In this document: piece after piece, positions 382-28,366 of the stretch
How positions within the stretch are numbered: position 1 is the first letter of the stretch
Layout of the letters: every line of letters begins with the position of its first letter
Assembly (NCBI RefSeq): GCF_003334315.1
Contig: NZ_QOWR01000060.1
DNA: 28,819 nt
Reading direction: 5' to 3' (one strand)
Source of the DNA: Escherichia coli
GTDB lineage: Bacteria; Pseudomonadota; Gammaproteobacteria; Enterobacterales; Enterobacteriaceae
Position numbers and translations under genes: made by a program
The notes under the pieces: generated by a model
The model's input: the letters and a program-made list of their open reading frames with translations, nothing else
The model's database searches: none
Told to the model about the DNA's origin: nothing

Positions 382-633
382 GTGAATTTCCCGATATTGT
401 GAGATTAAAGAATAATAATGTTCACAAACAGAACGTGGATCTTCACTTTCACCGGCTAAATCAGCAATGACTAATCCGGAACGACGTAATTGTAATAAGG
501 TAAGGTCCTCCGCAGAGGCGCTGGATATTATTTCATATTCAGGGAAGTGAGTCCTCATGACCTCTTTTAACCCTGCTTGCATAACAGGTATTTTACTGAT
601 AACAATTCCATTTTTGCAGCATCCTGGCAACAT
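382..633 (-). pseudogene. yjjQ: yjjQ 5' fragment (LuxR-family regulator), truncated by the IS1 insertion after about 83 codons
   Basis: The ORF starts [44 protein letters not shown]... (YjjQ N-terminus). The frame runs straight into the IS1 IRL at 381 and stops inside IS1 (...REIH|GDDANLLI*). Full-length YjjQ is about 241 aa as I recall. Confidence 0.85.
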
Positions 634-1253
634 ATTTCCTCCACATCCACTGTCTAAAAATTATGATGGTTTATTCAGGATATTCATTCCTTAAATGTTT
701 CCAGCAAATTAATAGATTAAGCGAATAAATTATCCTTAGCATTCACTTTCATATCAGCATACTCCTGCTGCACAACAACTCCACTGCATGTGTCAGAAGG
801 TTAGCATCAAATGATAACCTGGTGAAATAGCCTGGAGACATTTAAAATATCTACATTAAGTTGTTAGGAATACTTAATGAAAAACAGAAATCACATTCAT
901 TTAATTTATAATTAAATGATATCCCTTCCCGCAGAATGCGGGAATCACACAATCAATATTTATTCAATAAAATCTGATGATTTTAACTTGTTAACACTAA
1001 AAAACGCGCCCAGCTATCTATTATCCTGACCCGTAAAGGCTAAAACAATAAATTCATTATAGTGATAATATTCATGTGATAGTTTGTTTGCGGCGAGAGA
1101 TAATTCGCTTTTTATCACCGAGCTTGTCCCGATAACCAGGATTAATCAGCGCAATTTTGATCTTAACCTACCGCAAAACAACCGTGCTTCATGATACAAA
1201 TGGATTCTCATTATCTGAACAATACGCAGCACGTCTATGACAAAGGGCGAGTT
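634..1253. promoter_or_regulatory. yjjQ / yjjP divergent intergenic region, strongly AT-rich
   Basis: About 600 bp of low-GC DNA between divergent genes, typical of nucleoid-protein (H-NS type) silenced divergent promoters. Contains a perfect hairpin TTCCCGCA-GAA-TGCGGGAA at 926..944. Confidence 0.5.
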
Positions 1254-2024
1254 ATGCAAACTGAGCAACAGCGAGCCGTAACGCGGCTTTGTATCCAGTG
1301 TGGATTATTTCTTTTGCAACATGGTGCGGAAAGCGCGTTGGTTGATGAGCTTTCCTCACGACTGGGTCGGGCGTTGGGAATGGACAGCGTCGAAAGTTCT
1401 ATCTCTTCGAACGCCATAGTGCTGACAACTATTAAAGATGGGCAATGCCTGACATCGACACGAAAAAATCACGATCGCGGCATTAATATGCATGTGGTGA
1501 CTGAAGTCCAGCACATTGTGATTCTTGCGGAGCATCATCTGCTGGATTACAAAGGCGTAGAGAAACGATTTAGCCAAATTCAGCCATTACGTTACCCAAG
1601 ATGGCTGGTAGCCTTAATGGTTGGCCTTTCTTGCGCCTGTTTCTGTAAACTCAATAACGGTGGCTGGGATGGTGCCGTCATCACCTTCTTTGCCAGTACG
1701 ACCGCGATGTATATCCGTCAGCTGCTGGCACAACGTCATCTTCATCCACAGATCAACTTTTGCCTTACCGCTTTCGCCGCCACCACCATTTCCGGATTGC
1801 TTTTGCAACTCCCCACTTTCAGCGATACACCCACCATTGCGATGGCCGCCAGCGTTCTGCTGCTGGTGCCGGGCTTTCCGTTGATTAATGCCGTCGCCGA
1901 TATGTTTAAAGGCCACATCAATACCGGACTGGCACGCTGGGCGATCGCCAGTCTGCTGACGCTGGCTACCTGCGTCGGCGTGGTGATGGCACTGACGATT
2001 TGGGGGCTACGCGGATGGGTGTGA
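1254..2024 (+). CDS. yjjP: YjjP, ThrE-family inner-membrane protein (putative dicarboxylate exporter subunit)
   Basis: ORF 1191..2024; start placed at the internal ATG at 1254 ([12 protein letters not shown]...) to give the ~256-aa protein I recall. Multiple hydrophobic segments in the C-terminal half. Confidence 0.9.
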
Positions 2025-2488
2025 TCGAGTTTCTGTTTGCATTGGCGCAGGATATGATCCTCGCCGCCATTCCAGCGGTCGGCTTTGCGATGGTGTTCAA
2101 CGTTCCCGTGCGGGCGTTACGCTGGTGTGCGCTGCTTGGCGCGATTGGCCATGGTTCACGAATGATCTTAATGACCAGCGGGCTGAATATTGAGTGGTCA
2201 ACTTTTATGGCTTCTATGCTGGTCGGCACCATTGGTATTCAATGGTCGCGCTGGTATCTGGCGCATCCGAAAGTGTTTACCGTGGCGGCCGTTATCCCTA
2301 TGTTCCCGGGCATATCGGCTTATACCGCAATGATTTCGGCGGTAAAAATCAGCCAGTTAGGTTACAGCGAACCGTTGATGATTACCCTGTTAACCAACTT
2401 TCTTACAGCTTCATCGATTGTTGGTGCGTTATCCATCGGTCTTTCCATTCCTGGATTATGGTTGTACCGCAAGCGCCCTCGCGTATAA
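2015..2488 (+). CDS. yjjB: YjjB, small inner-membrane protein partner of YjjP
   Basis: ORF 2000..2488; start at ATG 2015 ([20 protein letters not shown]...), overlapping the yjjP stop by 10 bp, which suggests translational coupling. Hydrophobic throughout. Confidence 0.9.
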
Positions 2489-2594
2489 AATTGCCTCGCT
2501 TAAGCACACGGATGAGAGACAGCCTCCTCTCCTCCGTGTGTTACTATAAAAGTTATCTCCCTTCTCGTTCATCGTTCCATATTTGAGAAACAGT

Positions 2595-3134
2595 ATGTCT
2601 TCCAGAGTTTTGACCCCGGACGTCGTTGGTATTGACGCCCTGGTACACGATCACCAAACCGTTCTGGCAAAAGCTGAAGGCGGTGTGGTTGCCGTATTTG
2701 CTAACAATGCCCCGGCGTTTTATGCCGTCACGCCTGCACGCCTGGCTGAACTGCTGGCGCTGGAAGAAAAGCTGGCGCGTCCGGGAAGCGATGTCGCTCT
2801 GGACGATCAACTCTATCAGGAACCGCAAGCCGCTCCCGTTGCTGTACCCATGGGGAAATTCGCCATGTATCCGGACTGGCAACCCGATGCCGACTTTATC
2901 CGCCTGGCGGCGCTATGGGGCGTGGCACTAAGAGAGCCGGTGACCACCGAAGAACTGGCCTCATTCATTGCCTACTGGCAGGCGGAAGGTAAAGTCTTTC
3001 ACCATGTGCAGTGGCAACAAAAACTGGCGCGCAGCCTGCAAATCGGTCGTGCCAGCAACGGCGGACTGCCGAAACGAGATGTGAATACGGTCAGCGAACC
3101 TGACAGCCAAATTCCACCAGGATTCAGAGGGTAA
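2595..3134 (+). CDS. dnaT: DnaT, primosomal protein I
   Basis: [35 protein letters not shown]..., 179 aa. Sits immediately upstream of dnaC, as in the dnaTC operon. Confidence 0.95.
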
Positions 3135-3136
3135 CG

Positions 3137-3874
3137 ATGAAAAACGTTGGCGACCTGATGCAACGCCTGCAAAAAATGATGCCTGCCCATATCAAACCTG
3201 CATTCAAAACGGGTGAAGAGCTACTGGCCTGGCAGAAAGAACAAGGGGCGATCCGCTCCGCCGCTCTCGAACGTGAAAATCGGGCGATGAAAATGCAGCG
3301 CACCTTTAACCGCTCCGGTATTCGTCCACTGCATCAGAACTGCTCCTTTGAGAACTATCGCGTTGAGTGTGAAGGGCAGATGAATGCGTTAAGCAAAGCG
3401 CGCCAGTATGTCGAAGAGTTTGACGGCAACATCGCCAGCTTCATCTTTTCTGGTAAGCCAGGAACCGGCAAAAACCATCTGGCGGCGGCAATCTGCAACG
3501 AGCTGCTGCTACGCGGTAAATCCGTATTGATCATCACCGTGGCCGATATTATGTCGGCGATGAAAGATACCTTCAGGAATAGCGGTACCAGCGAAGAACA
3601 ACTGCTTAACGATCTGAGCAACGTTGATCTGCTGGTGATCGATGAGATCGGCGTGCAGACCGAATCGAAATACGAAAAAGTGATCATCAACCAGATCGTC
3701 GATCGCCGCTCTTCTTCCAAACGCCCAACCGGGATGCTGACCAACAGTAATATGGAAGAGATGACCAAGTTGCTGGGCGAACGCGTGATGGACCGTATGC
3801 GCCTGGGTAACAGTTTGTGGGTGATCTTCAACTGGGATAGCTACCGTAGCCGGGTAACAGGTAAAGAGTATTAA
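3137..3874 (+). CDS. dnaC: DnaC, DnaB-helicase loader (AAA+ ATPase)
   Basis: 245 aa with Walker A motif GKPGTGKNHL and Walker B LLVIDEIG. Starts 2 bp after the dnaT stop. Confidence 0.97.
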   Translation: MKNVGDLMQRLQKMMPAHIKPAFKTGEELLAWQKEQGAIRSAALERENRAMKMQRTFNRSGIRPLHQNCSFENYRVECEGQMNALSKARQYVEEFDGNIASFIFSGKPGTGKNHLAAAICNELLLRGKSVLIITVADIMSAMKDTFRNSGTSEEQLLNDLSNVDLLVIDEIGVQTESKYEKVIINQIVDRRSSSKRPTGMLTNSNMEEMTKLLGERVMDRMRLGNSLWVIFNWDSYRSRVTGKEY

Positions 3875-3919
3875 TCCCCGTTTCTGGCGGTATACTGCGA
3901 CACAATTCCACCTTGAGTA

Positions 3920-4417
3920 ATGATGATGAAAACTGTTAAACATCTTCTGTGCTGTGCCATTGCCGCCAGCGCATTAATTTCCACCGGGGTGCATGCTGCG
4001 TCCTGGAAAGATGCGCTCTCCAGCGCCGCCAGCGAACTTGGCAACCAAAACAGCACGACACAGGAAGGCGGTTGGTCGCTCGCGTCATTAACTAACTTGC
4101 TTAGCAGCGGGAACCAGGCCTTAAGCGCAGATAACATGAACAATGCCGCAGGCATTCTGCAATACTGCGCGAAGCAAAAGCTGGCGTCGGTAACCGATGC
4201 CGAAAACATCAAGAACCAGGTGCTGGAAAAGCTGGGCCTGAACAGTGAAGAACAAAAAGAAGACACCAACTATCTGGATGGCATTCAGGGTTTGCTGAAA
4301 ACCAAAGATGGTCAGCAACTCAATCTGGATAACATCGGAACGACTCCGCTGGCAGAAAAGGTGAAAACCAAAGCCTGCGATCTGGTGTTAAAGCAGGGGC
4401 TGAACTTCATTTCCTGA
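3920..4417 (+). CDS. yjjA: YjjA, secreted protein of unknown function (DUF2501-type)
   Basis: N-terminal signal peptide MMMKTVKHLLCCAIAASALISTGVHA; 165-aa ORF; conserved position after dnaC. Confidence 0.85.
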   Translation: MMMKTVKHLLCCAIAASALISTGVHAASWKDALSSAASELGNQNSTTQEGGWSLASLTNLLSSGNQALSADNMNNAAGILQYCAKQKLASVTDAENIKNQVLEKLGLNSEEQKEDTNYLDGIQGLLKTKDGQQLNLDNIGTTPLAEKVKTKACDLVLKQGLNFIS

Positions 4418-4670
4418 ACCGCGAAACGCCGCGTTTTAGCTGTTACCCGGCTGACGCGGCTCTCTCCTGCCCTTTTCCCTGCTCCTGGACGGTTTTCCCC
4501 CTGTTACACGGGAAGCGACCGCGATCAAAAAAGTCTGTTTATAAACTAATTCCTAACAACATCGCATTTTTTTGACACTAGAATTGCAGCAATATGGCGA
4601 CGCCATTACATTGTGCTTCTCAAAAAGCTTAAACGTTGGCTAAACGGCCCGGTTTAGTGAGGATCGCCTG

Positions 4671-6962
4671 TTGTCAGAACTACTCTCTTTCGCCCTTTTT
4701 CTCGCCTCTGTGCTGATTTACGCATGGAAAGCGGGACGTAACACCTGGTGGTTTGCAGCCACATTAACGGTGCTGGGGCTATTTGTCGTTTTAAATATCA
4801 CCCTGTTTGCCAGCGACTATTTTACTGGCGATGGTATTAACGACGCGGTTCTCTATACCTTAACCAATAGCCTGACCGGTGCTGGCGTCAGCAAATACAT
4901 CCTGCCGGGTATCGGCATTGTGCTGGGGCTGACGGCGGTGTTCGGTGCGCTGGGCTGGATCCTGCGCCGTCGTCGTCATCATCCGCACCATTTTGGTTAC
5001 AGCCTGCTGGCGCTCTTACTGGCGCTGGGTTCGGTGGACGCCAGCCCGGCATTTCGTCAGATAACGGAACTGGTGAAATCCCAGTCACGCGACGGCGACC
5101 CGGACTTTGCGGCTTATTATAAAGAGCCGTCGAAAACTATCCCTGACCCGAAACTCAACCTGGTTTATATCTATGGCGAAAGTCTCGAGCGAACCTATTT
5201 TGATAACGAAGCTTTCCCGGATCTCACGCCTGAACTGGGCGCGTTGAAAAATGAAGGCCTGGATTTCAGCCACACGCAGCAGCTGCCAGGAACGGATTAC
5301 ACGATTGCGGGCATGGTGGCTTCTCAGTGCGGCATACCGCTGTTTGCCCCCTTTGAAGGCAACGCCTCCGCTTCTGTTTCCAGCTTCTTCCCGCAGAACA
5401 TCTGTCTGGGCGATATCCTGAAAAACTCGGGTTATCAGAACTATTTCGTGCAGGGCGCGAATCTGCGTTTTGCCGGTAAAGATGTGTTCCTGAAGTCGCA
5501 CGGTTTCGACCATTTATACGGCTCAGAAGAGCTGAAAAGCGTGGTGGCCGACCCGCACTATCGCAACGACTGGGGATTCTACGACGATACCGTTCTCGAT
5601 GAAGCGTGGAAAAAGTTTGAAGAGCTTTCCCGTTCTGGTCAGCGATTCTCACTGTTTACCCTGACAGTCGATACCCATCACCCGGATGGTTTTATCTCGC
5701 GTACCTGTAACCGCAAAAAATATGATTTTGACGGTAAGCCGAACCAGTCATTCAGCGCGGTAAGTTGCAGCCAGGAGAATATCGCGGCGTTTATCAACAA
5801 AATCAAAGCGTCACCGTGGTTTAAAGATACCGTCATCGTCGTCTCTTCTGACCATTTAGCGATGAACAACACGGCGTGGAAATACCTCAATAAGCAGGAT
5901 CGCAATAACCTGTTTTTTGTCATTCGTGGCGACAAGCCGCAGCAAGAGACGCTGGCAGTGAAGCGTAACACGATGGATAACGGCGCGACGGTGCTGGACA
6001 TTCTCGGTGGCGATAACTATCTCGGACTTGGTCGTAGCAGTTTATCCGGGCAGTCGATGTCGGAAATCTTCCTCAATATCAAAGAGAAAACATTGGCGTG
6101 GAAGCCAGATATCATCCGCCTGTGGAAATTCCCTAAAGAGATGAAAGAGTTCACCATCGACCAGCAGAAAAACATGATTGCCTTCTCGGGTAGCCATTTC
6201 CGTTTGCCGCTGCTGTTGCGGGTTTCAGACAAACGCGTGGAACCGCTGCCGGAAAGCGAATACTCAGCACCGCTGCGTTTCCAGCTGGCCGATTTCGCTC
6301 CACGCGACAATTTCGTCTGGGTTGACCGTTGCTATAAGATGGCACAACTCTGGGCTCCGGAACTGGCACTTTCCACCGACTGGTGTGTCTCGCAGGGGCA
6401 GCTTGGCGGTCAGCAAATTGTCCAGCATGTTGACAAAACAACATGGAAGAGCAAGACGGCATTTAAAGATACGGTCATCGACATGGCGCGTTACAAAGGC
6501 AATGTCGATACGCTGAAGATTGTTGATAACGATATTCGCTACAAAGCCGACAGTTTCATCTTTAACGTCGCCGGTGCGCCAGAAGAGGTGAAACAGTTTA
6601 GCGGGATTTCCCGTCCAGAGTCGTGGGGCCGCTGGTCCAACGCGCAGCTGGGCGATGAAGTAAAAATCGAGTACAAGCATCCGCTGCCGAAGAAATTTGA
6701 CCTGGTGATTACCGCCAAAGCATACGGCAATAACGCCAGCCGTCCTATTCCGGTACGCGTAGGCAATGAAGAACAAACTCTTGTGCTGGGCAATGAAGTG
6801 ACCACCACCACACTGCATTTCGATAACCCAACCGATGCCGACACACTGGTAATTGTGCCGCCGGAACCTGTCTCAACCAACGAAGGGAATATCCTCGGAC
6901 ACTCGCCGCGTAAGCTCGGGATCGGCATGGTGGAAATTAAAGTTGTGGAACGTGAAGGGTAA
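4671..6962 (+). CDS. opgB: OpgB (MdoB), phosphoglycerol transferase I for osmoregulated periplasmic glucans
   Basis: 763-aa ORF starting at TTG ([20 protein letters not shown]...). N-terminal transmembrane segments followed by a sulfatase-like domain. Confidence 0.93.
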
Positions 6963-19142: not shown

Positions 19143-20519
19143 ATGAGCGACACCTCACCTGCCATACCGGAGAGTATCGATCCGGCGAATCAGCATAAAG
19201 CGCTGACTGCCGGACAACAGGCGGTTATTAAGAAGCTGTTTCGCCGCCTGATCGTCTTTCTGTTCGTGCTGTTTATCTTCTCGTTCCTTGATCGCATCAA
19301 CATCGGCTTTGCCGGACTCACGATGGGACGCGACCTCGGTCTGAGCGCCACCATGTTTGGCCTCGCTACCACCCTGTTCTATGCCGCTTATGTCATCTTC
19401 GGCATTCCCAGCAACATTATGCTGAGTATTGTCGGTGCGCGGCGCTGGATCGCCACCATCATGGTGCTTTGGGGCATCGCCTCTACTGCCACCATGTTTG
19501 CCACTGGCCCCACCAGCTTGTACGTACTGCGTATACTGGTTGGCATTACCGAAGCCGGCTTTCTGCCCGGCATTCTGCTGTATTTAACCTTCTGGTTTCC
19601 GGCCTATTTCCGCGCCCGTGCCAACGCCTTGTTTATGGTAGCAATGCCGGTAACGACAGCGTTGGGATCGATCGTTTCCGGCTACATTTTGTCGCTGGAT
19701 GGCGTAATGGCATTAAAAGGCTGGCAGTGGCTGTTTTTGCTGGAAGGCTTCCCGTCGGTATTACTCGGCGTCATGGTGTGGTTCTGGCTTGATGACTCAC
19801 CGGACAAAGCTAAGTGGCTGACGAAAGAAGACAAAAAATGCCTGCAAGAGATGATGGATAACGATCGTCTGACGCTGGTTCAGCCAGAGGGAGCCATCAG
19901 CCACCACGCCATGCAACAACGCAGCATGTGGCGGGAGATCTTCACTCCGGTGGTGATGATGTATACCCTGGCGTATTTCTGCCTGACCAACACACTTAGT
20001 GCGATCAGCATCTGGACACCGCAGATCCTACAAAGCTTTAATCAGGGCAGCAGTAATATCACCATCGGCCTGCTGGCCGCCGTACCGCAGATTTGTACCA
20101 TTCTCGGGATGGTCTACTGGAGCCGTCACTCAGATCGCCGCCAGGAACGAAGGCATCACACCGCCCTTCCTTATTTGTTCGCTGCCGCTGGTTGGTTACT
20201 GGCTTCGGCAACTGATCACAACATGATCCAGATGCTGGGGATCATTATGGCTTCGACCGGATCATTCAGCGCAATGGCGATTTTCTGGACAACACCGGAT
20301 CAGTCCATCAGCCTGCGGGCACGAGCGATCGGTATTGCGGTGATCAACGCCACTGGCAACATTGGTTCAGCGTTAAGTCCGTTTATGATCGGCTGGTTGA
20401 AAGATTTGACCGGCAGCTTTAACAGTGGATTGTGGTTTGTTGCCGCGCTGCTGGTGATTGGTGCGGGGATTATCTGGGCGATTCCAATGCAGTCCTCCCG
20501 TCCGCGAGCGACCCCGTAA
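19143..20519 (+). CDS. hpaX: HpaX, MFS 4-hydroxyphenylacetate permease
   Basis: ORF 19083..20519; start at the ATG with SD AGAGGAAG (MSDTSPAIPESIDPANQHK...), 458 aa, 12 predicted transmembrane segments. Confidence 0.9.
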   Translation: MSDTSPAIPESIDPANQHKALTAGQQAVIKKLFRRLIVFLFVLFIFSFLDRINIGFAGLTMGRDLGLSATMFGLATTLFYAAYVIFGIPSNIMLSIVGARRWIATIMVLWGIASTATMFATGPTSLYVLRILVGITEAGFLPGILLYLTFWFPAYFRARANALFMVAMPVTTALGSIVSGYILSLDGVMALKGWQWLFLLEGFPSVLLGVMVWFWLDDSPDKAKWLTKEDKKCLQEMMDNDRLTLVQPEGAISHHAMQQRSMWREIFTPVVMMYTLAYFCLTNTLSAISIWTPQILQSFNQGSSNITIGLLAAVPQICTILGMVYWSRHSDRRQERRHHTALPYLFAAAGWLLASATDHNMIQMLGIIMASTGSFSAMAIFWTTPDQSISLRARAIGIAVINATGNIGSALSPFMIGWLKDLTGSFNSGLWFVAALLVIGAGIIWAIPMQSSRPRATP

Positions 20520-20528
20520 GGAACGACG

Positions 20529-21419
20529 ATGTGTGACCGTCAGATTGCCAATATTGATATCAGCAAAGAGTACGATGAAAGCCTGGGCACGGACGATGTG
20601 CATTATCAGTCGTTCGCCCGCATGGCGGCATTTTTTGGCCGCCATATGCTGCCACATCGCCACGAACAGTACTTTCAGATGCATTTCCTCAATAGCGGAC
20701 AGATTGAGCTACAGCTTGACGATCATCGCTACTCGGTGGAAGCGCCCCTGTTTGTCCTGACGCCGCCGTCAGTACCTCATGCGTTTATTACGGAGTCTGA
20801 CGCCGACGGTCATGTGTTGACGGTACGGGAAGATCTGATCTGGCCCCTGCTGGAAGTTCTTTATCCGGGCACTCGGGAAACCTTCGGCCTGCCGGGGATT
20901 TGCCTGTCACTGGCAGATAAACCCGACGAACTGGCGGCGCTGGAACACTATTGGCAACTGATAGAGCGGGAATCGGTAGAACAACTGCCTGGACGGGAAC
21001 ACACCCTGACGTTACTGGCACAGGCAGTGTTCACCCTACTGCTGCGTAACGCAAAACTCGACGACCATGCCGCCAGCGGAATGCGCGGAGAATTAAAACT
21101 GTTCCAGCGTTTTAATATGCTGATTGAAAGCCATTTTCATCAGCACTGGACAGTACCGGATTACGCTAACGAACTGCATATCACCGAATCACGCCTCACG
21201 GACATCTGCCGCCGCTTTGCCAACCGTCCGCCAAAACGGTTGATTTTCGACAGGCAGCTGCGAGAAGCCAAGCGGTTGCTGCTGTTTTCTGATAACGCCG
21301 TGAACAATATTGCCTGGCAACTCGGTTTTAAGGATCCGGCTTATTTTGCGCGCTTTTTTAATCGCTTAGTCGGTTGCTCGCCCAGTGCTTATCGCGCCAA
21401 AAAAGTACCTGTGACGTGA
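20529..21419 (+). CDS. hpaA: HpaA, AraC/XylS-family activator of hpaBC
   Basis: 296 aa; C-terminal AraC-type HTH (IAWQLGFKDPAYFARFFNRLVGCSPSAYR); immediately upstream of hpaBC. Confidence 0.9.
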   Translation: MCDRQIANIDISKEYDESLGTDDVHYQSFARMAAFFGRHMLPHRHEQYFQMHFLNSGQIELQLDDHRYSVEAPLFVLTPPSVPHAFITESDADGHVLTVREDLIWPLLEVLYPGTRETFGLPGICLSLADKPDELAALEHYWQLIERESVEQLPGREHTLTLLAQAVFTLLLRNAKLDDHAASGMRGELKLFQRFNMLIESHFHQHWTVPDYANELHITESRLTDICRRFANRPPKRLIFDRQLREAKRLLLFSDNAVNNIAWQLGFKDPAYFARFFNRLVGCSPSAYRAKKVPVT

Positions 21420-21669
21420 AAATCCCTTAGCCTTAACGGGAAACCAGGCACCACCTGCTATTCCCCTTTCTCCGCCTGGAGCAAGGGGATTTAGTAACGT
21501 TAAAAATCGCTAAAAGCGACCTCGATCACAAAACCGTACCCGACCTGAAAAGTACCAGCCATTGTCCCAAAAGTGTCTTCCCGTAATCGCCCCTGCAAGC
21601 TTCAATTGAATAACAAAAACAACACACAAAATTAACAATCGTATTCCGATTAATACTGTAGAGGTCGAT
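21420..21669 (+). promoter_or_regulatory. hpaBC promoter region (HpaA-activated), including a hairpin after hpaA
   Basis: 250-bp intergenic region; hairpin TCCCCTT...AAGGGGA at about 21452..21482; palindrome TCGCT-aaa-AGCGA at about 21507..21519; A-rich tract AACAAAAACAACACACAAAATTAACAA upstream of the hpaB SD. Confidence 0.5.
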
Positions 21670-23232
21670 ATGAAACCAGAAGATTTCCGCGCCAGTACCC
21701 AACGTCCGTTCACCGGGGAAGAGTATCTGAAAAGCCTGCAGGATGGTCGCGAGATCTATATCTATGGCGAGCGAGTGAAAGACGTCACCACTCATCCGGC
21801 ATTTCGTAATGCGGCAGCGTCTGTTGCCCAACTGTACGACGCGCTACACAAACCGGAGATGCAGGACTCTCTGTGTTGGAACACCGACACCGGTAGCGGC
21901 GGCTATACCCATAAATTCTTCCGCGTGGCGAAAAGTGCCGACGACCTGCGCCAGCAACGCGACGCCATCGCTGAGTGGTCACGCCTGAGCTATGGCTGGA
22001 TGGGCCGTACCCCAGACTACAAAGCCGCTTTCGGTTGCGCACTGGGCGCGAATCCGGGCTTTTACGGTCAGTTCGAGCAGAACGCCCGTAACTGGTACAC
22101 CCGTATTCAGGAAACTGGCCTCTACTTTAACCACGCGATTGTTAACCCACCGATCGATCGTCATTTGCCGACCGATAAAGTGAAAGACGTTTACATCAAG
22201 CTGGAAAAAGAGACTGACGCCGGGATTATCGTCAGCGGTGCGAAAGTGGTTGCCACCAACTCGGCGCTGACTCACTACAACATGATTGGCTTCGGCTCGG
22301 CACAAGTGATGGGCGAAAACCCGGACTTCGCACTGATGTTCGTTGCGCCAATGGATGCCGATGGCGTGAAATTAATCTCCCGCGCCTCTTATGAGATGGT
22401 CGCGGGTGCTACCGGCTCGCCGTACGACTACCCGCTCTCCAGCCGCTTCGATGAGAACGATGCGATTCTGGTGATGGATAACGTGCTGATCCCATGGGAA
22501 AACGTGCTGATCTACCGCGATTTCGATCGCTGCCGTCGCTGGACAATGGAAGGCGGTTTTGCCCGTATGTATCCGCTGCAAGCCTGTGTGCGCCTGGCAG
22601 TGAAATTAGACTTCATTACGGCACTGCTGAAAAAATCACTCGAATGTACCGGCACCCTGGAGTTCCGTGGTGTGCAGGCCGATCTCGGTGAAGTGGTGGC
22701 GTGGCGCAACACCTTCTGGGCATTGAGTGACTCGATGTGTTCAGAAGCGACGCCGTGGGTCAACGGGGCTTATTTACCGGATCATGCCGCACTGCAAACC
22801 TATCGCGTACTGGCACCAATGGCCTACGCGAAGATCAAAAACATTATCGAACGCAACGTTACCAGTGGCCTGATCTATCTCCCTTCCAGTGCCCGTGACC
22901 TGAACAATCCGCAGATCGACCAGTATCTGGCGAAGTATGTGCGCGGTTCGAACGGTATGGATCACGTCCAGCGCATCAAGATCCTCAAACTGATGTGGGA
23001 CGCCATTGGCAGCGAATTTGGTGGTCGTCACGAGCTGTATGAAATCAACTACTCCGGTAGCCAGGATGAGATTCGCCTGCAGTGTCTGCGCCAGGCACAA
23101 AGCTCCGGCAATATGGACAAGATGATGGCGATGGTTGATCGCTGCCTGTCGGAATACGACCAGAACGGCTGGACTGTGCCGCACCTGCACAACAACGACG
23201 ATATCAACATGCTGGATAAGCTGCTGAAATAA
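21670..23232 (+). CDS. hpaB: HpaB, 4-hydroxyphenylacetate 3-monooxygenase, oxygenase (FADH2-utilising) component
   Basis: 520 aa (MKPEDFRASTQRPFTGEEYLKSLQDGREIYIYGERVKDVTTHPAFRN...). Confidence 0.95.
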   Translation: MKPEDFRASTQRPFTGEEYLKSLQDGREIYIYGERVKDVTTHPAFRNAAASVAQLYDALHKPEMQDSLCWNTDTGSGGYTHKFFRVAKSADDLRQQRDAIAEWSRLSYGWMGRTPDYKAAFGCALGANPGFYGQFEQNARNWYTRIQETGLYFNHAIVNPPIDRHLPTDKVKDVYIKLEKETDAGIIVSGAKVVATNSALTHYNMIGFGSAQVMGENPDFALMFVAPMDADGVKLISRASYEMVAGATGSPYDYPLSSRFDENDAILVMDNVLIPWENVLIYRDFDRCRRWTMEGGFARMYPLQACVRLAVKLDFITALLKKSLECTGTLEFRGVQADLGEVVAWRNTFWALSDSMCSEATPWVNGAYLPDHAALQTYRVLAPMAYAKIKNIIERNVTSGLIYLPSSARDLNNPQIDQYLAKYVRGSNGMDHVQRIKILKLMWDAIGSEFGGRHELYEINYSGSQDEIRLQCLRQAQSSGNMDKMMAMVDRCLSEYDQNGWTVPHLHNNDDINMLDKLLK

Positions 23233-23249
23233 CGCAGCAGGAGGTTAAG

Positions 23250-23762
23250 ATGCAATTAGATGAACAACGCCTGCGCTTTCGTGACGCGATGGCCAGCCTG
23301 TCGGCAGCGGTAAATATTATCACCACCGAGGGCGACGCCGGACAATGCGGGATTACGGCAACGGCTGTCTGCTCGGTCACGGATACACCACCGTCGCTGA
23401 TGGTGTGCATTAACGCCAACAGTGCGATGAACCCGGTTTTTCAGGGCAACGGTAAGTTGTGCGTCAACGTCCTCAACCATGAGCAGGAACTGATGGCACG
23501 CCACTTCGCGGGCATGACAGGCATGGCGATGGAAGAGCGTTTTAGCCTCTCATGCTGGCAAAAAGGTCCGCTGGCGCAGCCGGTGCTGAAAGGTTCGCTG
23601 GCCAGTCTTGAAGGAGAGATCCGCGATGTGCAGGCGATTGGCACACATCTGGTGTATCTGGTGGAGATTAAAAACATCATCCTCAGTGCAGAAGGTCACG
23701 GACTTATTTACTTTAAACGCCGTTTCCATCCGGTGATGCTGGAAATGGAAGCTGCGATTTAA
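23250..23762 (+). CDS. hpaC: HpaC, NADH:flavin oxidoreductase component of 4-HPA 3-monooxygenase
   Basis: 170 aa (MQLDEQRLRFRDAMASLSAAVNIITTEGDAGQCGITATAVCSV...), flavin-reductase fold; follows hpaB with an SD. Confidence 0.93.
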   Translation: MQLDEQRLRFRDAMASLSAAVNIITTEGDAGQCGITATAVCSVTDTPPSLMVCINANSAMNPVFQGNGKLCVNVLNHEQELMARHFAGMTGMAMEERFSLSCWQKGPLAQPVLKGSLASLEGEIRDVQAIGTHLVYLVEIKNIILSAEGHGLIYFKRRFHPVMLEMEAAI

Positions 23763-23769
23763 GCTCCAG

Positions 23770-23804
23770 CCCCTTCACGCATTCGTCGAAGGGGTATTTT
23801 TATT
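23770..23804 (+). terminator. Rho-independent terminator of hpaBC
   Basis: CCCCTTC-acgcattcgtc-GAAGGGG followed by TATTTTTATT. Confidence 0.8.
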
Positions 23805-23827
23805 GTGATCTCAATCACATATCCACC

Positions 23828-23855
23828 CGATGAATAATTCTTGCCCAACCGCTCA
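23828..23855 (+). promoter_or_regulatory. Direct repeat ACCGCTCA / ACCGCTTA in the btsT promoter, candidate LytTR response-regulator (BtsR/YehT) binding site
   Basis: Two copies of ACC(G)CT(C/T)A separated by 12 bp, about 300 bp upstream of the btsT start. This matches the YehT/BtsR binding motif as I recall it from the yjiY promoter. Confidence 0.55.
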
Positions 23856-24154
23856 CCGCCATTCCTGACCGCTTACATCCCTAAAATAACCACTCAGTTA
23901 TTTACCTTACTTTACGCGCGCGTATCTCTGGCAACATCACTGCAGGATAGCGGTCAATTTACCTCCTCAAATGCAACGCAAACCTAGAACGGCTTCGGCC
24001 TATGATTAACAAATTACTCTATGGATTTTGGTTTGCAGGAAGGCAGCAAGTGAGTGAATCCCCGGGAGCTTACAAAAGTAAGTGTCAGAGGTGAACGAAC
24101 GCAGCTGCCGCACCTGTAAGCCAAAAGACGACGAGTAAAATGCCAGGTTTTACT

Positions 24155-26435: not shown

Positions 26436-26639
26436 ATGTTTGGTAACTTAGGACAGGCAAAAAAATATCTCGGCCAGGCGGCGAAGATGTTGATTGGCAT
26501 TCCAGACTACGACAACTACGTCGAGCATATGAAGACCAACCATCCCGACAAGCCGTACATGAGCTATGAAGAATTCTTCCGCGAACGCCAGAACGCGCGC
26601 TACGGCGGCGATGGTAAAGGCGGTATGCGCTGTTGTTAA
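26436..26639 (+). CDS. yjiX: YjiX, small DUF466-family protein associated with CstA-like transporters
   Basis: 67 aa ([58 protein letters not shown]...); conserved position after btsT. Confidence 0.88.
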
Positions 26640-26649
26640 TGGAGAGAGC

Positions 26650-27606
26650 ATGAACCCGATTGCAGTTACCCTACTCACCGGTTTTTTAGGCGCGGGCAAA
26701 ACCACCCTGCTGCGCCATATTCTTAACGAACAACACGGCTACAAGATTGCCGTGATTGAAAACGAATTCGGCGAAGTCTCCGTTGATGATCAATTGATTG
26801 GTGATCGCGCCACGCAGATCAAAACGCTGACCAACGGCTGCATCTGCTGTTCGCGCTCCAACGAGCTGGAAGACGCACTACTCGACCTGCTGGACAATCT
26901 CGACAAGGGCAATATTCAGTTCGATCGTCTGGTCATTGAATGCACCGGCATGGCCGATCCTGGCCCGATTATTCAGACCTTTTTCTCCCATGAGATTTTA
27001 TGCCAGCGCTACCTGCTGGACGGCGTGATTGCGCTGGTGGATGCGGTACATGCCGATGAGCAGATGAACCAGTTCACCATCGCCCAGTCCCAGGTTGGCT
27101 ACGCCGACCGTATTCTGCTGACTAAAACCGACGTCGCAGGCGAAGCAGAAAAACTGCGTGAACGCATGGCGCGCATCAACGCCCGCGCACCGGTCTACAC
27201 CGTTACCCACGGCGACATCGACCTGGGCCTGCTGTTCAACACCAACGGTTTTATGCTGGAAGAAAACGTCGTCAGCACCAAACCGCGTTTCCACTTTATC
27301 GCGGACAAACAAAACGATATTTCGTCGATTGTGGTGGAACTGGATTACCCGGTAGATATCAGCGAAGTTTCCCGGGTGATGGAAAACCTGCTGCTGGAAT
27401 CGGCGGATAAACTGCTGCGTTACAAAGGGATGCTGTGGATTGACGGCGAACCTAACCGCCTGCTGTTCCAGGGCGTCCAGCGCCTCTACAGCGCCGACTG
27501 GGACAGGCCGTGGGGTGATGAAACACCGCATAGCACAATGGTGTTTATCGGGATTCAGTTGCCGGAGGATGAGATTCGGGCAGCGTTTGCGGGGTTGAGG
27601 AAGTAA
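26650..27606 (+). CDS. yjiA: YjiA, COG0523-family P-loop GTPase (putative metal chaperone)
   Basis: ORF 26566..27606; start at the internal ATG with SD GGAGAG (MNPIAVTLLTGFLGAGKTTLLRHILNE...), 318 aa; Walker A GFLGAGKTT and the CxCC metal motif GCICCS. Confidence 0.92.
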   Translation: MNPIAVTLLTGFLGAGKTTLLRHILNEQHGYKIAVIENEFGEVSVDDQLIGDRATQIKTLTNGCICCSRSNELEDALLDLLDNLDKGNIQFDRLVIECTGMADPGPIIQTFFSHEILCQRYLLDGVIALVDAVHADEQMNQFTIAQSQVGYADRILLTKTDVAGEAEKLRERMARINARAPVYTVTHGDIDLGLLFNTNGFMLEENVVSTKPRFHFIADKQNDISSIVVELDYPVDISEVSRVMENLLLESADKLLRYKGMLWIDGEPNRLLFQGVQRLYSADWDRPWGDETPHSTMVFIGIQLPEDEIRAAFAGLRK

Positions 27607-27692: not shown

Positions 27693-27884
27693 TTATTGCG
27701 CGTGAATACCTGGATCTGGCAAAAAATTGCCGCGTTTGGCGTCAGACCATGCTTCGCTACCAGAAGCAGGAATGTCGCTGTAATCAATGTCTTCGTCGGA
27801 TTTATTAACCAAAGCCATGAGTTCAGCTTCTTGCTGCACATCAAGTGTGTAGAGTGTGCCCCGTTTATGTTTAACCATGCTCAT
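27693..27884 (-). CDS. Hypothetical small acidic protein (63 aa) with a DEDIDYSDIP motif; possibly a remnant of a small antitoxin-like gene
   Basis: ORF MSMVKHKRGTLYTLDVQQEAELMALVNKSDEDIDYSDIPASGSEAWSDAKRGNFLPDPGIHAQ, 39 bp downstream of the 137-aa ORF on the same strand, with an AAAGG SD-like sequence upstream. No family assignment could be verified. Confidence 0.4.
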   Translation of the reverse strand: MSMVKHKRGTLYTLDVQQEAELMALVNKSDEDIDYSDIPASGSEAWSDAKRGNFLPDPGIHAQ

Positions 27885-27923
27885 TTATGACCAGAACCTT
27901 TACGATTTAATTATAAAGATGAC

Positions 27924-28337
27924 TTATTTCAGCCATCCAGGCACGTTATATTCTGAGACATTCTCAATGGAATATGCATCTCTCCTGTCAGAACCTTTCT
28001 TACACTTCAACTCATTGAACCCCCATTTACCCTCTCTATTGGAATAAAATACAGTATATTTATCGGTATTAAACCCGAAATATCTTTCATCCGGACGTGA
28101 AATATTCAACTCTCCACATTTAACCTGACTGCGCCATTCAAAATCTATGGTGCTTTTTAAAACGTAGTACGAAATATTCTCTACATTTTTTGAAGCAAAA
28201 ACTACTAAAATAGTAGATACTATAAATGCTCCGGCAAGTATAAATAACCTATACACACTTAATTTAGTCCCCAGAGTTAAAAAAGCAAAATAGATAATAA
28301 GTTGCATCAACATGAAGAAAATTAACAAAAAAGCCAT
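27924..28337 (-). CDS. Hypothetical membrane-anchored protein (137 aa; two N-terminal hydrophobic helices plus an ~85-aa soluble domain) in a very AT-rich segment
   Basis: ORF MAFLLIFFMLMQLIIYFAFLTLGTKLSVYRLFILAGAFIVSTILVVFASKN... followed by a Lys/Asn/Tyr-rich domain. GC content is far below the neighbouring genes. The start codon lies 30 bp from the IS1 IRR end, and IS1 transcription is oriented toward it. Confidence 0.5.
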   Translation of the reverse strand: MAFLLIFFMLMQLIIYFAFLTLGTKLSVYRLFILAGAFIVSTILVVFASKNVENISYYVLKSTIDFEWRSQVKCGELNISRPDERYFGFNTDKYTVFYSNREGKWGFNELKCKKGSDRRDAYSIENVSEYNVPGWLK

Positions 28338-28366
28338 CCCTTTCCAGAAATACTCAACCCATGGTG

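Follow-up and report, generated by a model that had tools for sequence, protein, structure and literature searches.

Two models of translational coupling between neighbouring genes have been published, termination-reinitiation and RNA unfolding (PMC12548453). Efficient stop-to-start distances range from about -8 to +10 nt, with the best values between -4 and +3. In synthetic constructs, coupling is efficient at -4 to +3 and drops as the overlap grows from -4 towards -25. The closest described natural systems are the E. coli pairs hyfH-hyfI, astD-astB, ydbH-ynbE, menD-menH and bioB-bioF (Huber et al. 2019, 2023), co-directional operon pairs at -4 or -1 in which the Shine-Dalgarno (SD) sequence is embedded in the upstream ORF. 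Coupling was found in four of five native E. coli pairs at -4, being strict in three, ~60% in one and absent in the fifth. The bioBF pair (-4) showed zero coupling and full de novo initiation, menDH showed ~40% de novo initiation, and +2 mutants of native E. coli pairs retained 30-95% of coupling. Genome-wide, 707 of 2,987 co-directional E. coli pairs (24%) lie at -8 to +6, with -4 the commonest single value (PMC10666635), and heteromeric complexes are over-represented 4.5-fold among pairs at short distance (Huber et al.).

The window analysed here, a stretch of 28,819 nucleotides, is a segment of the E. coli chromosome that runs from yjjQ to yjiA and includes the accessory hpa cluster. Its first 4.5 kb are matched by 5,425 of 5,426 complete E. 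coli genomes. The coding sequences are RefSeq annotations transferred from the near-identical genome L002, which differs from the window at 293 positions over 28.8 kb in an ungapped position-by-position comparison; translated on the window, all annotated plus-strand coding sequences have one terminal stop each. The gene order in the L002 annotation is yjjQ, yjjP, yjjB, dnaT, dnaC, yjjA, opgB, lgoD/R/T and tsr, followed by hpaR, hpaGEDFHI, hpaXA, hpaBC, btsT, yjiX, yjiA and then IS1. The hpa cluster (~12470-24150, hpaR to hpaC) sits between tsr and btsT, and in the B2-type genome L001 tsr leads directly to btsT. The end of the window (27693-28819) holds a short antitoxin gene, a hypothetical ORF and an IS1A transposase; its counterpart in L001 carries BrnT/BrnA and a degraded IS1, indicating a variable, IS-disrupted region.

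The initial annotation had singled out three gene pairs, yjjP/yjjB, dnaT/dnaC and hpaG/hpaE, as translationally coupled and stoichiometrically produced. Its gene identities and coordinates are correct, and direct sequence reading together with translation of the coding sequences bore out the 10-nt overlap, the 2-nt gap and the ATGA overlap that it had described (Table 1). In all three cases the genes are co-directional neighbours on the same strand and belong to the same annotated operon.

Table 1 Coordinates of coding sequences, junctions and associated elements in the window.
Feature	Position	Strand	Details
yjjP CDS	1254..2024	+	256 aa, ThrE-domain membrane protein, upstream partner; stop TGA 2022-2024; annotation
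yjjB CDS	2015..2488	+	157 aa, ThrE_2-domain membrane protein, downstream partner; ATG 2015-2017; annotation
yjjP/yjjB overlap ATGGGTGTGA	2015..2024	+	10 nt; yjjB start and yjjP stop; direct sequence reading
SD-like GGGGG inside yjjP	2002..2006	+	Trp-Gly codons; ahead of yjjB ATG
Stable hairpin 3' of yjjB stop	2503..2542	+	MFE -27.8 kcal/mol for 2486-2596; z = -3.73 vs shuffles
dnaT CDS	2595..3134	+	179 aa; annotation; NCBIfam NF002770 match 1-179 of 179
dnaC CDS	3137..3874	+	245 aa; annotation; NCBIfam NF005931 match 1-245 to 1-246 of 246
dnaT TAA, spacer CG, dnaC ATG	3132..3139	+	TAA 3132-3134, CG 3135-3136; gap 2 nt; direct reading
SD GAGGG in last dnaT codons	3127..3131	+	Arg-Gly; 5 nt upstream of dnaC ATG
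hpaG CDS	13303..14592	+	429 aa, bifunctional decarboxylase/isomerase; TGA 14590-14592; NCBIfam NF011750 match 1-429 of 429
hpaE CDS	14589..16055	+	488 aa, CHMS dehydrogenase; ATG 14589-14591; annotation
ATGA, hpaE start over hpaG stop	14589..14592	+	4-nt overlap; direct reading
SD GAGGA inside hpaG	14575..14579	+	Glu-Glu codons; 9 nt upstream of hpaE ATG
hpaE stop TGA, 1 nt, hpaD ATG	16053..16059	+	fourth tight junction, +1
hpaD/hpaF junction	16906-16920		+9/+10 class
hpaH/hpaI junction	18167-18182		+9/+10 class
hpaX/hpaA junction	20517-20531		+9/+10 class
yjiX/yjiA junction	26637-26652		+9/+10 class

A YjjB scan of the genome collection gave 233 genome hits overall, and loci from 80 Enterobacteriaceae species were compared. 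The distance between yjjP and yjjB is -10, and the position of the ATG identical, in all 80. Across these species the yjjP stop codon varies (TAA in 52, TGA in 26, TAG in 2) and the yjjB ATG is invariant. At site 2015, where a yjjP Gly codon has its fourfold-degenerate third base, every one of the 80 species carries A, while nearby third positions of yjjP show three to four different bases. This contrast is a dual-coding signature and shows that the yjjB ATG is under selection. The SD-like motif ahead of yjjB forms an anti-SD duplex of -8.4 kcal/mol at a spacing of 7 nt (tool) or 8 nt (direct count), its TGGGG is invariant across the 80 species, and position 2006 is G in 74 of them. The junction sequence was found in 5,419 of 5,426 complete E. 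coli genomes.

The hairpin downstream of yjjB, which lacks a clean U-tract, probably marks the 3' end of the yjjPB transcript or acts as a stabilising element; yjjPB and dnaT-dnaC-yjjA have been described as separate transcription units (PMC2500167). A promoter and terminator scan of 600-4700 gave counts at the level of shuffled sequence and no site at the junctions. At the other end of the unit, the yjjP frame stays open for 21 codons ahead of the annotated start (1254), back to an ATG at 1191, and the SD of the annotated start is weak (-4.4 kcal/mol). In Enterobacter, Lelliottia and relatives (L007, L009-L014 and others), the distance from yjjB to dnaC exceeds that of E. coli by ~1.1-1.7 kb, dnaC starting at ~6,150-6,950 rather than ~5,120 in locus coordinates (yjjB end ~4474); in these loci additional DNA, probably comprising at least one gene, separates yjjB from dnaT. 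As yjjB is in the -1 frame relative to yjjP and fused ThrE proteins exist, a YjjP-YjjB fusion by programmed -1 frameshifting was also considered; it was dropped, as inspection of 1910-2024 in the yjjP frame revealed no slippery X XXY YYZ heptamer and the idea had no other support.

DnaC is the replicative helicase loader, and dnaC is essential. The dnaT-dnaC pair is present in 74 species of the YjjB-scan loci, with a distance of +2 in 47, ATGA (-4) in 23 and +1 in 3, so that the junction is tight in 73 of 74. The remaining species, Intestinirhabdus alba, has a 193-nt spacer (L051:5113-5305), and its dnaC carries an AGGGGG SD of its own. GAGG or GGGG is kept in every junction variant among the 74 species. 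In the window the dnaC SD forms an anti-SD duplex of -6.3 kcal/mol at a spacing of 5 nt, and the junction sequence occurs in 5,425 of 5,426 complete E. coli genomes. The dnaT-dnaC-yjjA operon has been described (PMC2500167). An in-frame ATT (3122-3124), 15 nt upstream of the dnaC ATG, is listed as a candidate in vitro initiation signal (INRI-seq table, PMC9825163); it sits inside dnaT just ahead of the SD and may be an offset artefact.

The hpaG/hpaE distance is -4 in Enterobacter, Pluralibacter, Pseudocitrobacter, Klebsiella, Pantoea and Erwinia and -1 in Providencia; overall, 8 Enterobacterales genera have either -4 or -1, and in Pseudomonas the equivalent hpaG2-hpaE distance is +27, with an SD of its own. 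The hpaE SD (anti-SD duplex -8.4 kcal/mol, spacing 9) is kept as GAGGA(G/C) in the 8 Enterobacterales genera. Because the hpa cluster is accessory in E. coli, the junction sequence is present in 2,070 of 5,426 complete genomes. NCBIfam models confirm the hpa family identities, and an hpaGEDFHI operon has been described (PMC3053370). The list of tight junctions in the initial annotation was selective, since it omitted the equally tight hpaE/hpaD (+1), a distance that is +1 or +2 in other Enterobacterales.

HpaG is a single bifunctional protein of 425-429 aa in Escherichia, Enterobacter, Pantoea and Erwinia, and is encoded by split HpaG1/HpaG2 genes in Klebsiella (-4), Providencia (+2) and Pseudomonas (+10) (loci L089:2501-3894, L090:2501-3900 and L093:2471-3902), making it a second fused-versus-split case beside YjjP/YjjB. 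No aldehyde dehydrogenase gene follows the distant HpaG homologues P0122 and P0128 of a 50%-identity library, which are uninformative on this junction. One predicted protein of 605 aa from a Logan contig (P0002), 99% identical to HpaG, combines FAA_hydrolase and Aldedh domains. It resembles an HpaG-HpaE read-through fusion across the ATGA and is most likely an error confined to one contig, either of frame or of assembly.

Are the annotated start codons the ones that are used? The initial annotation had named in-frame starts further downstream as the challenge to its own reading, and such codons exist: GTG 2021 and ATG 2054 in yjjB, the former of which would give a canonical GTGA overlap of -4, and Met8, Met14 and Met15 in dnaC. 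However, every in-frame ATG, GTG or TTG near the three starts was rejected on SD spacing and conservation. Most of the 80 species have GTA or ATA as the third codon of yjjB, so the GTG alternative is not conserved; the AGGA ahead of ATG 2054 lies at just 1 nt by direct reading (tool spacing 0; -4.1 kcal/mol); and the A of ATG 2015 does not vary. The dnaC frame opens at 3104, its three internal Met codons lack an SD, and codons 2-7 vary synonymously while the encoded residues are conserved. The hpaE frame opens at 14577, and ATG 14589 is its sole start codon before codon 29; the N-terminus MKK(I/V)NHWINGK is conserved throughout the Enterobacterales compared. Curated NCBIfam models are matched from residue 1 (YjjB residues 1-157 align to positions 1-157 of 157 in NF007391), or from residue 4 in HpaE, whose residues 4-487 align to profile positions 1-487 of 488 in TIGR02299. 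The annotated starts hold, and we give almost no credence to an annotation artefact with true starts further downstream.

The SDs of yjjB, dnaC and hpaE are all at or above the median strength for the window, and each lies inside the upstream ORF, 5-9 nt from the ATG. The hpaG/hpaE (-4) and dnaT/dnaC (+2) distances fall within the best coupling range, and yjjP/yjjB (-10) just outside the -8 to +10 class; given the drop seen with longer overlaps in synthetic constructs, the yjjP/yjjB junction may couple less efficiently. From this geometry, translational coupling of all three pairs is likely. The annotated ATGs serve as the downstream starts, and selection across the Enterobacterales keeps each junction tight; we consider it rather probable that the three pairs are coupled by termination-reinitiation. 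A ribosome ending the upstream gene would already be on the downstream start or a few nucleotides from it. Between the last sense codon and the AUG, the shift required of its P-site would be roughly -4 nt at yjjB, +2 nt at hpaE and +8 nt at dnaC. The SD could hold the terminated ribosome and allow re-initiation on the downstream gene, and some other ribosomes would initiate de novo, independently, at this SD. With re-initiation plus some de novo initiation, the output of the downstream gene would follow upstream translation, not necessarily 1:1.

The tight spacing could also be a by-product of dense operons and of easily arising ATGA or TAA-N-ATG arrangements, with each downstream gene initiating de novo at its own SD and the junction having no regulatory meaning. 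The SDs of the three downstream genes have normal strength and spacing, and no unusual or conserved structure hides them, so de novo initiation could supply most of the output. The dnaT/dnaC geometry drifts between +2, +1 and -4, and the Intestinirhabdus (193 nt) and Pseudomonas (+27) spacers are each accompanied by an SD; judging from these sequences, the junction is dispensable in some lineages. At -4, bioBF initiates wholly de novo and menDH in part, and a review attributes the abundance of -4 to its ease of evolution. However, tightness has been kept in 73 of 74, 80 of 80 and 8 of 9 lineages amid abundant synonymous change, and three of the five native E. coli pairs rely almost wholly on upstream translation. 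Elongating upstream ribosomes would moreover cover an overlapping initiation site, so that the two translations would not be fully independent. We therefore regard compaction without coupling as unlikely and favour termination-reinitiation.

Coupling by RNA unfolding would require that the downstream SD and AUG be sequestered until an upstream ribosome melts the structure. A single-sequence fold of 3087-3176 does place the dnaC SD (GGGU) and AUG in paired segments, and the yjjB start lies inside a local stem in the corresponding type of fold. The junction folds are no stabler than shuffled sequences, though (z = -1.27, -0.46 and +0.66 for the three junctions), and in a 39-species alignment of the dnaC junction the consensus structure reaches only -3.75 kcal/mol, with SD and AUG unpaired and no compensatory change. 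These data make unfolding a very improbable basis for coupling here.

Coupling alone does not yield 1:1 output, and the claim of stoichiometric production is well founded for only one of the three pairs. YjjP matches Pfam ThrE (PF06738, E = 4.9e-69) and YjjB matches ThrE_2 (PF12821, E = 6.8e-33), the two domains that are joined in the single-chain ThrE threonine/serine exporter. On the ThrE model NF047720 (468 positions), YjjP maps to 98-288 and YjjB to 313-445, collinear with the N- and C-terminal parts. With 26.9 and 34.1 bits, against an equivalog cut-off of 550, both score much too low for YjjP and YjjB to be ThrE orthologues. In contrast to ThrE, E. coli has two separate polypeptides, which are named a putative succinate exporter; YjjP and YjjB have been used together as a succinate exporter. 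A ThrE-domain gene is thus followed by a ThrE_2-domain gene in the order of the fused protein. The comparison supports a split ThrE-type exporter of which YjjP would be the N-terminal and YjjB the C-terminal half, and a single complex is supported indirectly by these 'Rosetta stone' split domains and by the entry for yjjP-yjjB (-10, 'CMPLX yes') in the table of Huber et al. 2023 (PMC10666635). The earlier designation as a two-subunit exporter is thereby supported. The domains and their collinear alignment make a two-chain exporter that needs matched amounts a reasonable proposal, and YjjP and YjjB are presumably required in equal amounts and co-assembled.

For the other two pairs, stoichiometric production is not borne out. 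The same table lists dnaT-dnaC at +2 as 'CMPLX not' (PMC10666635). DnaT works with PriA and PriB and passes on to the DnaB-DnaC complex, a hand-off, and DnaT and DnaC form no stable complex of fixed stoichiometry. Absolute proteomics gives 0.55-0.93 DnaT per DnaC (median 0.70, 18 samples; Mori et al. 2021, Dataset EV9), and a ratio of ~0.7 indicates similar levels with no sign of a 1:1 requirement. HpaG and HpaE had been called sequential meta-pathway enzymes, which does not agree with the pathway order HpaD > HpaE > HpaF > HpaG: HpaE catalyses step 2 and HpaG steps 4-5 of the homoprotocatechuate meta pathway (PMC3053370). Because HpaF acts between them, the two enzymes are not sequential, and neither passes its product directly to the other. 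The gene order G-E runs in reverse to the pathway order, and we found no evidence of an HpaG/HpaE complex. At dnaT/dnaC and hpaG/hpaE the junction would therefore serve co-expression of operon partners rather than complex stoichiometry.

The invariant -10 overlap allows a more specific reading. It could be a 'backward' re-initiation site under specific selection, the ratio of YjjB to YjjP being set by its lower efficiency or by its timing, or it could enforce co-translational assembly of the exporter halves on the same mRNA. Elsewhere this COG pair is normally found at -4 or -1, distances that evolve much more readily; in the cross-species table of Huber et al. 2023 (PMC10666635), COG2966@COG3610 (YjjP@YjjB) has 350 entries, and their median distance is -1. 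We consider such a dedicated role quite improbable.

The three junctions are ordinary operon-internal junctions of the yjjPB, dnaT-dnaC-yjjA and hpaGEDFHI operons, and their architecture was already known, two of the three having been catalogued by Huber et al. 2023. Tight junctions are not enriched in the window, where three of 20 co-directional pairs lie at -8 to +6, or four if the -10 pair is counted, against 24% genome-wide. As a count, tightness does not exceed chance; as a conserved feature kept across genera, it does. A second tight class in the window consists of hpaD/hpaF (+9), hpaH/hpaI (+10), hpaX/hpaA (+9) and yjiX/yjiA (+10). In three of these four the upstream stop TAA continues into GGA (TAAGGA...), so that the stop codon doubles as the 5' portion of the SD of the gene that follows.

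The analysis confirms the annotated starts of yjjB, dnaC and hpaE and the use of the standard tight-junction architecture by their operons, with little significance beyond housekeeping. In practice, a mutation or insertion in dnaT, yjjP or hpaG can have a polar effect on translation of the downstream gene, and when yjjPB is expressed heterologously, for instance to export succinate, its native junction should be retained if the subunit levels are to match. The fourfold-degenerate Gly position in yjjP also provides a clean small example of dual-coding constraint, its third base being frozen as A because it is the first base of the neighbour's start codon.

Within the literature searched, no published coupling experiment on dnaT-dnaC, yjjPB or hpaGE was found. 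Huber et al. tested five other native pairs, and an overlap points to coupling only in a probabilistic sense. The yjjP/yjjB distance of -10 is outside the -8 to +10 class of the Huber analyses, although the pair is present in their table. A tobacco chloroplast pair with a native distance of -10 (Yukawa et al., as described by Brown & Wade 2025) was coupled in vitro, and a change to +2 halved its coupling; according to that secondary account the pair belongs to a different translation system and to unrelated genes, and E. coli at -10 may behave otherwise. The four +9/+10 junctions of the window fall in the E. coli-specific '+9 to +12' class, 203 pairs that carry the SD in their spacer (Huber et al. 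2023). Pairs of that class are thought to initiate largely independently, whereas the three junctions studied here are tighter. Among these, hpaG/hpaE shares the exact ATGA geometry of the native Huber pairs, and dnaT/dnaC at +2 resembles their +2 mutants.
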